This document shows, in pieces, positions 12,483-15,400 of a DNA stretch of 64,000 bases. The stretch covers positions 9,908 to 73,907 of the IMG/VR virus record IMGVR_UViG_3300042557_000330, one strand, 5' to 3'. This DNA comes from a virus. A program made the translations under genes and the position numbers. A model generated the notes under the pieces. It saw only the letters and a program-made list of their open reading frames with translations, was not told the DNA's origin and made no database searches. How positions within the stretch are numbered: position 1 is the first letter of the stretch; every line of letters begins with the position of its first letter.

Positions 12483-15400
12483 TTAAAATGGTACACAAGA
12501 ATCATCGTTGTTTTCTTCTTTCCAAGAATCATCTTCTTGTTCAAAAAGATCTAATTGTTCTCCTGGTTGTTCTACTTGCTCAGGTCTAAGTTCTTCTCTT
12601 ACTTCCATAAGTAATCTTGGGAACTCAGTACCCCACTTACCCTTATCTTGTGTATGAGTAAGGGTAGCATTACCTGTAGCTAATAGTTTTTGAAGAGCTG
12701 TTGGATTTTGTTCAAAAGAATTTTTTAACAAAGCTTTCATTATTTCTGAATTATTGTTATTCCAATCTTTTATTTCTAATCCTTCAATAGTTTGACCTAA
12801 TTGTTTAGCTTGACTACCTGTACTTTTTGAAAATTTATTTAATAAATTTATTTTTTCTTCATTAGAATATTTTTCTGAATAAAATATTTTATAAGCTTGA
12901 TATGCACCTTCTACTGTATTAAATACTAATACATTTCCAGTTATATCTTTATAAAGTTCTGATAAATCACCATCTTCTTTAAAAGGTCTATTAGCAAAGT
13001 TGCTTAACTCAGCATTCTCTCCTGTACCTGCATAGATATTTATTTTTTCTCCACTGAATGTCTGTGTAGGTTCAGCTATAACTTCTGTAGGTAAAGATAC
13101 AACTTCTTCTTTAGGTGTAATCACTTCAAACTCAATAGCAGCAGCACCATCTTTAAATCTATCTATAACATTTACATCTTCAGCTCTCCATCCTTCTTTA
13201 GCCCATGTACCTTTCCAACCTTCAGACCCTTTAGGATGAATAGCAGTCACTCTAGCATTTATAGTTTTAGTAGTTCCATCTGCAGATTTACCAAAGTTTT
13301 GTATAACATCACCTACATTAACTGAATATTTCTTCATTTCAGAATCACTTCTTGTAGTTCTTGTTCTTACGCCTGCTTCAATCATATCTATACTATGAGG
13401 ATTTGGACCTAGAAGTTCAATAGCTTCATCATTTGCACTGACTAAAGAACCATATGATTCAACTCCAGACACTTTGTTTTGAGGAACACTTGCTACAACT
13501 TGATTACTTGTAGATTCAACCACTTCTTCTGTTGGTAAAGATACAACATCTTCTGTAATATTCCCATCGAAGTATCCAATAATTTTTGCATCAGAAAGCT
13601 CTTGATCTATTTTAATTGTACCGTTGTTAAGAACAGAAGGTCTTCCATCTAAATAGTATTCAGAAACTATATTACCATCACCAAGTAAGTTAACTAGTTT
13701 GTATACATATCTACCTTCAAAGTTTAATAATGGTTGACCATTTGAGTATTTAACTTTCTGATATCCATAGTAATCTGTTAGAGAAGTGTTACCTTGCATT
13801 CTCATAGCTTTCATAGCTTGTGAACTAATAGTTTTACCAGTGATAAGATCTACGTTCTCACCTTTTTTGTTTACAAACACTCTAGGCACTTTAACAAAAT
13901 CACTGTTTGCTCCATTACCCATATCAAACATAGGACTTAATGTCAAGACTAATCTTTTGTTTTCAGCATCATCAAATTTAGTTTCAAACATTTCAGTTTG
14001 ATATTGATATACATCATTACCAAAAGGATCTTCTCCTAATATAATTTCAATCTCTTCAAAATTTTCATCTCTTGGAAATGTAAATCTAGGAGTAATTGTA
14101 GGAACTATCTGTTCATCCTTAAAATTATTCTTTTGGAACATTCCTCCATTAGCAAAATATTCTGTATCAGCATTATCAATCAATCCATCTATAATAGGTT
14201 TAATCTCTTTAGAATAATCTTCTAAAGGAATAATGTTATTGATTGATAACGGAGACTGATAAGTACCTTGTAGAAGAGCCACCTTAACAATGTTGTTATA
14301 CAACTCAGGATCTAACTCTCTTAACTCTCTCATCATCTCTACATACAAGTTCTCATCATATGCTTCTTTCAAGTTCACTTTAAGTTTGATAGTTTGTGCA
14401 CCATCAACTTTCTTAGATGATTCTGGAACAAGATCTTGTAACAATTTCATTCCAGGATACTTCACCTTAGCTTTTGCTAATTGCTCAGCAATAGAATTAT
14501 CTCCTGTAGTTAGTTCTAATATTCTAGAGTTAAGTCCTGATTTAGTTTGTATAATGAAATCAAGGAACGATGCTTTAGCTTTACTAGCAATCTTAGAGAA
14601 ATCATCATCACCTATAAAGTCTTGTTTCTCAAATGAGTTCAATACTTTATTAGTTATATCTACAAATCTTTCTTGTTCAAGTTTAACAATTGAACCAACA
14701 GCTTTCATTGCTAAGTCTATTAATCTTTTTTGATTACCAATTGAGCTTGAATCTAATAATTCATCTATAGAAGTGAATATATTTAAATCTCTTGCTATAT
14801 CTGTTTTAGTTGACTTTCTATTAAATACATCAGAGTTTTTAAACTTAGTTGTATCATAGTTTGTAGCTTGTGTAAACTTAAAGCTGTATTCAGCCATCTT
14901 AGAATACTTCAAGAAATCTGTAAGGATTGCTCCTTGTTCTCTATTCTGTACCTCACTCAACATTTTATTTTTGTTATTGGCATAAGTTTCAATGTTAGAT
15001 TTTAATGAATCTACATTATACACTTCTTCTTTTGCATACTTACTTCCCACTTTAGAAAGACCAAACTTAGCTCTTGTAGCATTGATGTTTTTTGTATTGT
15101 ATAAGAACTTACTCCCTTTAGATTCAAGAGAACTAAGGTATTCCATAACAATTGGTTGGTTCATAAACCATATTGCATTTTGACCAGCACCAATTCTTTC
15201 TAAGAACATGAACGTACTAATAGCAGAATCAGATTTAACAATCTTCATGATGTATGGATCTTTTGCAATATCCACAACAGAAGTTGCGTATCCAGAAAGT
15301 CTATTAGAAATAAACTTATCAGATCCATCTGCTGTCTTAGTTCCAGAAAGAGATGTATATTCTTTACCATCAATATTAGTTGTATTGTGTGGTAGATTAA

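Follow-up and report, generated by a model that had tools for sequence, protein, structure and literature searches.

A short conserved linker and an apparent hypervariable cassette bay at the C-terminus of a giant crAss-like virion RNA polymerase

The DNA analysed here (hereafter the window) is a 64-kilobase (kb) stretch of IMG/VR virus record IMGVR_UViG_3300042557_000330, a record of 73.9 kb with an estimated completeness of 64%; DNA of the window is present in freshwater and lake metagenomes, and freshwater Bacteroidota are the probable hosts of phages of this clade. Located among other giant genes, in a transcription/cargo block, is a gene encoding a protein of 4580 amino acid residues (aa), whose 3' end is the subject of this report. 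In the direction of translation, a conserved core ends in a short linker, which is followed by an ASCH-fold domain, a second copy of the linker, a NADAR domain and a short terminal module that opens with the motif PGEQLDLF (Table 1). Comparisons with related loci suggest that this region is a bay in which domain cassettes are exchanged, and that recombination at the linker may contribute to the exchange.

Table 1. Features of the giant gene and its 3' end (window coordinates). Order on the minus strand: core and linker 1 (13557-13509), ASCH (13497-13112), linker 2 (13113-13065), NADAR (13046-12576), PGEQLDLF and tail (12566-12483).
Feature	Coordinates	Strand	Remarks
Giant gene, crAss-like virion RNA polymerase / polyvalent protein	12483-26225	minus	4580-aa open reading frame (translation)
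DFDIDK catalytic motif	16161-16178	minus	residues 3350-3355
Outer linker copy, peptide TEDVVSLPTEEVVEST	13509-13557	minus	conserved core end, left edge of variable bay
ASCH-fold cassette	13104-13526	minus	141 aa between two VVSLPTE motifs; folded domain about 13116-13505
Inner linker copy, peptide KEEVVSLPTEVIAEPT	13065-13113	minus	separates ASCH and NADAR cassettes
NADAR cassette	12576-13046	minus	Pfam PF08719 match at 12621-13019
PGEQLDLF, right edge of bay	12543-12566	minus	homology to L005, L006, L008 and L009 resumes at 12561
Terminal acidic module ...EQEDDSWKEENNDDSCVPF and stop codon	12483-12542	minus	translation
Terminal Cys 4577, position -4	12495-12497	minus	translation

The 4580-aa protein contains two HExxH motifs and the catalytic motif DFDIDK, of the form DxDxD, and its residues ~2500-3900 match the gp66 RNA polymerase of phage phi14:2 (PDB 6VR4) with an E-value of 1e-24 over about 1000 residues (chain residues 811-1726). 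The motif and this match justify its label as an RNA polymerase (RNAP) and place it among the crAss-like virion RNAPs. It is about twice as long as gp66 and differs from it by the apparently swappable accessory enzyme domains at its end. The crAss-like RNAPs are virion proteins that are translocated with the DNA into the host (PMC7886860; bioRxiv 10.1101/2020.03.07.982082), and crAss001 virions contain RNAP-associated giant ("cargo") proteins, gp47, gp49 and gp50 (PMC10172136). By homology, the window protein most likely travels in the virion and enters the host on ejection.

The C-terminus differs strikingly between otherwise similar proteins. Seven IMG/VR loci (L004-L010) are 74-98% identical to the window over the preceding 531 aa, and all of them share with it a common core up to ..VSLPTE, after which they diverge. 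The linker is followed by the ASCH-fold domain in the window and L004, by a helical domain of ~170 aa in L005, L006, L008 and L009, and by an AlkB-like 2OG-Fe(II) oxygenase (PF13532, E 4e-14) in L010. In blastn comparisons, unbroken nucleotide homology of 81-98% to these loci runs through the outer linker and ends at 13509-13527. The five close relatives with 81-89% nucleotide identity all break within this interval and continue in non-homologous DNA until homology resumes, which happens inside PGEQLDLF in L005, L006, L008 and L009, and only at 12197, inside the next gene, in L010. That next gene (7586-12472), which encodes a conserved protein of 1628 aa and begins 10 nucleotides (nt) past the stop codon of the giant gene, is 84-87% nucleotide-identical in the relatives irrespective of the cassette they carry. 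No match to the 3' region turned up among 50,697 phage records searched by megablast, and in a tblastn search against phages the NADAR part alone was matched.

A profile-guided scan widened the comparison to 80 loci with cores 25-98% identical to that of the window, yielding 66 distinct complete tails with lengths from 12 aa to ~1000 aa. Domains found in these tails include NADAR, cpYpsA-SLOG, AlkB-like (2OG-FeII_Oxy_2), DUF7831, a RecD/TraI-like SF1 helicase (AAA_30 and UvrD_C_2) and an HExxH-like domain, as well as a second ASCH-like type and several unnamed domains. In about 70 relatives the core terminates at the same linker as in the window, and VSLPTE is its conserved ending in many. Empty bays also occur: in L029 and L030 the linker is fused directly to PGEQLDLF. 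The distant relative L093 has a NADAR-only bay with a single linker, in the order core-EEVVSLP...NADAR-GEQLDLF. The variants co-occur in nature: in one lake run a contig follows the window as far as 13523, where it switches to an AlkB-type linker, and other lake runs contain an L091-type NADAR context. The initial annotation of this DNA had proposed to look in relatives for different domains between VVSLPTE linkers, or for a single linker with no ASCH domain, and named a uniform architecture with unconserved linkers as the finding that would speak against it. The comparison came out in its favour: ASCH, helical, AlkB, NADAR, SLOG and helicase domains or an empty bay follow a conserved linker, and the single-linker form without ASCH exists, in a distant relative. 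From these sequence comparisons we conclude with high confidence that the C-terminus of the giant RNAP is a hypervariable cassette bay.

Among the closest relatives, bays most often contain the helical domain (..LNNLPKITPESARKETG..AAHxIW..), which has no Pfam match. It was observed in the tails of L005-L009, L016-L018, L060, L150 and L151, and also downstream in L135.

The two copies of the linker in the window form a single direct-repeat family of 49 nt with starts 444 nt apart, a spacing of 148 codons that keeps the copies in frame. They are identical at 40 of 49 positions overall (82%) and at 27 of 29 in the best 29-nt stretch, with a peptide consensus of E[D/E]VVSLPTE; VVSLPTE itself occupies residues 4227-4233 (13527-13547) and 4375-4381 (13083-13103). 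No other pair of 29-mers with at least 27 matches exists in the gene, and none of 100 codon-shuffled genes contained any such pair. Similarly, the 24-nt linker pattern (at most three mismatches) occurs at two sites only in the 64-kb window, compared with an expectation of 0.00 from 100 shuffles. A contig from another lake run covers 12837-13673, including both copies, with 0 differences, and an IMG/VR contig that is 98% identical has the same outer linker and domain start as far as the contig reaches, so an artefact confined to a single assembly does not explain the arrangement. The pair of in-frame 27/29 repeats around a segment of ~140 aa, from which the initial annotation started, is thus real and non-random, and the strings quoted for that segment (SIDMIEAGVRTRTTR...IEFEVI) are present in the 141 aa between the repeats.

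Compared with the core-end linkers of L004, L005 and L010, the inner copy shows 80-82% identity over 49-54 nt, and 21 of 21 nt match the core-end linker of L093; over 45-49 nt it is compatible with an origin from a close sibling or from a distant donor. None of the 148 fetched loci carries two copies of this linker as the window does. Repetition of a linker between cassettes is recurrent, since two other multi-cassette relatives, L022 and L100, have their own inter-cassette linkers repeated three times each at the nucleotide level. In L022 (5381-6229) the linker ..ACTCAACCAGTTATAGA.. is present three times, and in L100 (1723-3337) a TAAACCTACAGAAGCTG-like linker is present three times.

The segment between the two copies is a discrete domain. 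An exhaustive HMMER search of 1.84 billion representatives identified 100 homologues (61 below 1e-30), which align over residues 6-139 of the 141 and lie mostly within giants of 2000-6000 aa, at many different positions. The ASCH homology block occupies exactly the interval between the repeat copies, and the variety of protein contexts removes the concern, raised at the outset, that the insert might not be a separable domain. A single-sequence AlphaFold model of the insert was useless (predicted local distance difference test, pLDDT, 40). AlphaFold2 supplied with an alignment of 24 family members produced a domain of ~130 aa with a pLDDT of 93.6 and a predicted template modelling score of 0.87. 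When this model was compared with the PDB by Foldseek, the top 17 of the matches listed were all ASCH domains (E 1.7e-4 to 6e-4, probability 1.0), including PH0355, the N4-acetylcytidine (ac4C) amidohydrolase YqfB, 3s9x, 1t62, 3iuw and ZmASCH. The VIA search, which is independent of Foldseek, gave the same picture: the top eight of the matches listed were all ASCH, with Z from 8.3 down to 5.5. Both PH0355 and YqfB scored Z 8.3; the root-mean-square deviation was 2.9 A over 94 aligned residues for 2z0t (Z 8.3) and 3.2 A over 95 for 9kyf (Z 8.3).

Sequence models do not recover this relationship. Neither the insert nor any of the 24 aligned family members matches a Pfam family at E<=10, ASCH (PF04266) included; the insert matches nothing in PHROGs, and no ASCH chain was found by phmmer or profile searches of PDB sequences. 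The ASCH/PUA-like character proposed for the insert is therefore supported at the level of fold, where the model has the PUA-like beta-barrel, and not supported at the level of the sequence family: judged by its predicted structure, the insert is an ASCH domain, and by sequence it is a divergent, undescribed family. The motif had been given as GxKxxTxR and is in fact GxRxxTxR. Residues G52, R54, T55, R56, T57, T58 and R59 are invariant in all 24 sequences, and the octapeptide G52-x-R54-x-x-T57-x-R59 is spaced like G-x-K-x-x-T-x-R of YqfB, with the Lys replaced by an invariant Arg (24/24). The insert thus lacks the catalytic-Lys octapeptide G-x-K-x-x-[E/T]-x-R and keeps its Gly, Thr and Arg in register, a register taken from motif spacing rather than from residue-level structural alignment. 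This Lys is essential in every assayed ASCH enzyme (YqfB, TthASCH, EOLA1 and TRIP4). Because it is replaced, the chemistry of the domain may differ from that of the ac4C amidohydrolases. Compared with the ASCH domains of YqfB, PH0355, ZmASCH and TRIP4/EOLA1, the family has the same predicted fold and the same octapeptide spacing, and it adds an N-terminal segment (IPQN.VSG..S.G) and an invariant KEGW, both specific to the family.

The second, ASCH-like-looking type, seen in the tails of L022, L026, L064, L065, L090 and L100, has a canonical YqfB-type octapeptide, GTKTxTxR. A further ASCH-like-looking cassette, with GERTATTR, lies in L091 directly upstream of a NADAR that is 97.5% identical to that of the window. 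ASCH and NADAR are adjacent in several proteins (the window protein, L091 and P0052). We considered an obligate coupling of the two, since the window, L091, L100, L022 and P0052 combine both, and rejected it: phmmer detected NADAR in only 4 of 56 long ASCH-bearing proteins.

The downstream cassette belongs to the NADAR family by the family model. PF08719 matches residues 4403-4535 with E 1.9e-13 and scores 51.4 bits with the whole protein and 54.2 bits with the C-terminal piece, above the curated cut-off of 35.1; a weaker match to T4 gp30.3 was also observed. The two cassettes have different partners elsewhere. The NADAR cassette (471 nt) is 97.5% nucleotide-identical to L091 and L096, without homology in the flanks; the L091 protein is otherwise unrelated to the window protein and has a different terminal module. 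The ASCH cassette (13112-13497) is 77-82% nucleotide-identical to cassettes of otherwise unrelated loci (L133-L143), again without flanking homology, where it is surrounded by TQPST-type linkers in unrelated contexts. With the same high confidence as for the bay itself, these comparisons indicate that the ASCH and NADAR cassettes have separate histories. Base composition does not set them apart: a foreign origin was considered on this ground and dropped, as 36% guanine plus cytosine for ASCH and 28.5% for NADAR are not anomalous for a gene of 32.1 +/- 2.7%. Between L010 and L144, whose flanks are 66-75% identical, an AlkB cassette with its linker and the final ~90 nt of core is 93% nucleotide-identical, and L093 corresponds to an L144-like gene minus a clean in-frame AlkB cassette of 735 nt, with the left junction inside the linker.

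A closer view of L093 (2440-2500) against L144 (1499-2290) reveals an AlkB remnant, in which the C-terminal linker of AlkB (..PSMPSKPAIISETT) is joined straight to VVSLP; the difference looks like a clean in-frame removal of 735 nt, or an insertion in L144. NADAR domains are also present at other positions in giants of the gut and animal Crassvirales cr126_1 (NC_055884), cr130_1 (NC_055901) and cr131_1 (NC_055902): at the N-terminus of a 2402-aa protein beside an RNAP subunit, close to the C-terminal end of a "DprA-like" protein of 5801 aa, and in the middle of a protein of 1401 aa.

The linker is conserved beyond what the peptide would require. Among 13 relatives with cores 41-47% identical at the protein level, every identical residue of EDVVSLPTE is encoded by an identical codon (78 of 78), where a residue-specific background predicts 41.3 and a stricter codon-specific background 51.5. 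With a score of 1.00, the linker ranks first among the 230 nine-residue segments of the last 531 aa; the best segment outside it scores 0.84. In the alignment it appears as an invariant island of ~21-27 nt (GAAGAnGTTGTATCTTTACCAACAGAA) with diverged flanks on both sides, so synonymous sites are frozen even in distant relatives.

Taken together, these results are probably best explained, as a whole, by a bay whose contents are exchanged through the linker and arrive in the host as pre-made enzymes. In the scheme we propose, related phages that infect the same cell would exchange what their bays contain through homologous or short-homology recombination; crossovers would fall preferentially within the frozen linker at the left edge and within the terminal module at the right edge. 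In the window lineage, an unequal or illegitimate crossover would have fused an ASCH cassette, at its end, to the core-end linker in a genome with the order linker-NADAR-tail, duplicating the linker; the doubled linker would then be the scar of a single unequal crossover that stacked two cassettes. Single cassettes might also be replaced through their own conserved ends, for example those of the NADAR core. We infer recombination at the linker from the breakpoints that lie in or next to it and from its frozen sites, and have moderate confidence that the linker acts as a recombination site.

A number of observations weigh against this interpretation. For the NADAR core, the breakpoints are 19 nt downstream of the inner copy and 10 nt upstream of PGEQLDLF, and the AlkB exchange unit takes in ~90-150 nt of the core; since some cassette exchanges thus break outside the linker, its role as a handle stays an inference. 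Elsewhere the ASCH family has unrelated TQPST-type linkers, which makes VVSLPTE specific to the RNAP clade and no universal handle. The 13 relatives in the codon comparison are phylogenetically related, and the result, strong in aggregate, is modest per lineage (P 0.03-0.13). An identity of 82% over 49 nt implies that the duplication is old or that it came from diverged parents. No recombinant or ASCH-less sibling of the window phage was found: a scan of metagenome contigs for a single-cassette sibling returned three relatives, of which one proved to be the L004 contig itself and the other two have a helical LPKITP cassette. Among the joints listed for four lake runs none skips the 444 nt, but these were Logan contigs of low depth (3-6), which are unable to show absence and therefore weigh neither way; the support for one listed joint, from 12615 to 12977 (X9, side 25), is too weak to interpret. 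The ASCH motif is without the Lys that is essential in the assayed enzymes, the packaging of the 4580-aa protein is predicted from homologues, and the retention of cassettes in the virion is presumed. The reading of the linker as a recombination handle, put forward in the initial annotation, is supported by the breakpoints at the linker and by its frozen synonymous sites, with the breakpoints outside it counting against; the excision product of 444 nt was not seen in the contigs, and the repeat, once advanced as direct evidence of the mechanism, is by itself no proof of it.

Alternatively, VVSLPTE could recur because it is needed as a peptide, and not through DNA recombination at this site: a protein-level linker or a processing site, for example for protease cleavage that would release effectors during maturation or after ejection. 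We regard this as unlikely. The peptide is conserved at the core end in many relatives and recurs exactly at the second domain boundary, short linkers rich in P, T, Q, S, E and V flank domains throughout the giants, and releasing effectors from a 4580-aa carrier would make functional sense. However, a need for the peptide leaves unexplained both the frozen synonymous sites (all codons identical against 41-52 expected) and the homology breakpoints in the linker, and a term search of the crAss001 virion paper (PMC10172136) found no mention of cleavage. Cleavage at the linker and recombination within it can coexist.

Even less probable, in our judgement, is a dedicated site-specific system of the integron, shufflon or homing type that acts on the linker, with the two copies as sites flanking an excisable ASCH cassette. 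Such a system would account for the sharply bounded invariant island between diverged flanks, for direct repeats that bracket the cassette exactly, and for the clean in-frame presence or absence of AlkB with its left junction inside the island. Weighing against it are the finding of no tyrosine or serine recombinase (PF00589, PF00239) in the 73.9-kb record, itself only 64% complete, the cassettes that occur elsewhere without the linker site, the two copies being in no other fetched locus, no excised form among the low-depth contigs, and several exchange tracts that run well past the island, as ordinary homologous recombination predicts. A further possibility is that the repeat arose incidentally, from a single old illegitimate fusion or internal duplication at a C-terminus that simply tolerates additions, and plays no continuing role. 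This would suit the 82% identity of the copies, the doubled linker being seen in the window lineage only and the transfer breakpoints outside the linker. It is very improbable, as it leaves unexplained the nucleotide-frozen linker of distant relatives, the breakpoints that in five close relatives repeatedly fall at the linker and at PGEQLDLF, and the analogous repeated linkers of L022 and L100.

A bolder extension of linker-based exchange, which we consider doubtful, is that the frozen linker is a dedicated recombination signal, a fixed docking site on the injected polymerase that makes the bay a domain-level analogue of an integron in which co-circulating crAss-like phages capture, stack and discard anti-defence cassettes, with the QLxLF motif and the Cys module aiming or anchoring the array, for example at the host sliding clamp or in the virion.

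The recognisable contents of the bay appear, by homology, to share a theme: removal of modifications from nucleic-acid bases, or handling of DNA. Alkyl lesions are reversed by oxygenases of the AlkB type. The ASCH enzymes take N4-acetyl groups off cytidine, and NADAR hydrolases remove ADP-ribose from guanine, some also from cytosine, in DNA and RNA, phages using them against DarTG1 (PMC12945103). This theme fits enzymes whose targets must be the genome as it enters or the earliest transcripts, ahead of any phage gene expression. As pre-made enzymes arriving with the DNA, the NADAR cassette would strip ADP-ribose from bases and so counter DarT1-type defence, the AlkB cassette that is its alternative would take away alkyl lesions, and the role of the ASCH-fold domain would be to bind a modified base or to process it. 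Unlike a phage NADAR of the DarG1 type encoded by a free early gene, that of the window is fused as a C-terminal cassette to a giant protein predicted to be injected.

The arrangement resembles two known classes of proteins. Polyvalent proteins, an established class of virion-embedded effectors (Iyer et al. 2017, PMC5512222; PMC9503650), are likewise very large, combine many effector and enzyme domains in one polypeptide, and are predicted to be embedded in the virion and delivered with the DNA. The window protein agrees with this description in its size and in its unrelated domains, namely HExxH, the RNAP core, ASCH-fold and NADAR, to which relatives add AlkB, SLOG, helicase and DUF7831. Proteins with the same ASCH-fold family also contain ART-PolyVal, cpYpsA and YAcAr domains. 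The window protein differs in its carrier, a crAss-like two-barrel virion RNAP, and in that variability is confined to a C-terminal bay with a frozen left junction and a conserved terminal module. A term search of Iyer et al. 2017 (PMC5512222) found none of ASCH, NADAR, crAss, linker or shuffling.

The other class is that of polymorphic toxins. The window protein shares with CdiA, Rhs and MuF proteins a conserved N-terminal carrier, a short junction motif, non-homologous C-terminal domains behind that motif between close relatives and, probably, exchange by recombination at the junction. In CdiA (VENN) and Rhs a conserved junction precedes the variable C-terminal domain. Junction-delimited C-terminal polymorphism is also a property of MuF phage-head toxins (PMC5576092). 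In contrast to these systems, the giant gene has no immunity gene or orphan cassette array downstream and no small variable open reading frame before the next gene; its cassettes are of repair or eraser type rather than recognised toxins, can be stacked, and are followed by a conserved terminal module. In limited literature searches we found no paper on a variable C-terminal cassette bay on a crAss-like RNAP. Within those searches, four elements appear to be new: the carrier, the bay with its frozen left junction and terminal module, the stacking of cassettes with a duplicated junction, and the ASCH-fold family.

Crassvirales are among the most abundant phages known, and very little is known of how they counter host defence. 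If the proposed scheme is correct, the injected RNAP would double as a delivery vehicle for rapidly exchangeable pre-made enzymes (an ADP-ribose eraser, AlkB, ASCH-fold, helicase and SLOG domains), which would act ahead of any phage transcription and provide a concrete catalogue of candidate counter-defence activities. The junction offers a defined and experimentally tractable place to study natural in-frame domain shuffling. Linker and terminal module would mark a natural site on an injected protein that tolerates foreign domains, which could be useful for phage functional genomics in laboratory strains. The undescribed ASCH-fold family is of interest in its own right: it counts 100 cluster representatives, is not covered by a Pfam model and has Arg in place of Lys in its catalytic motif.

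At the right edge of the bay, the PGEQLDLF motif and its DNA are conserved in L029 and L030, with cores only 45-46% identical to that of the window; in L030 (core 45% identical) PGEQLDLF and the acidic tail are almost nucleotide-identical. The acidic module is common to L005-L009, L016, L150 and L151. Variants of the motif include QLSLF in L045 (~6098), QLNLF in L018 (~6527) and GEQLDLF in L093 (~3040). PG(E)QLDLF contains what we take to be a match to QL[SD]LF, the pentapeptide consensus for binding the bacterial beta sliding clamp, and QLDLF may tether the injected protein to the clamp of the host; the record, 64% complete, encodes no clamp of its own.

All 66 distinct complete tails (L012-L090) have a Cys among their final six residues, despite unrelated terminal modules, with ends such as ..DSCVPF, ..LKDCY, ..LKSIC, ..KINEC, ..NNCG, ..QKCN, ..LKCKL, ..KCKG and ..PFTC. 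Judging from this pattern, a Cys near the end appears to be needed; in the virion it might serve as an anchor, form a disulfide or contribute to a metal site. Cys is otherwise rare, making up 0.47% of tail residues and occurring twice in the 4580 aa of the window protein.

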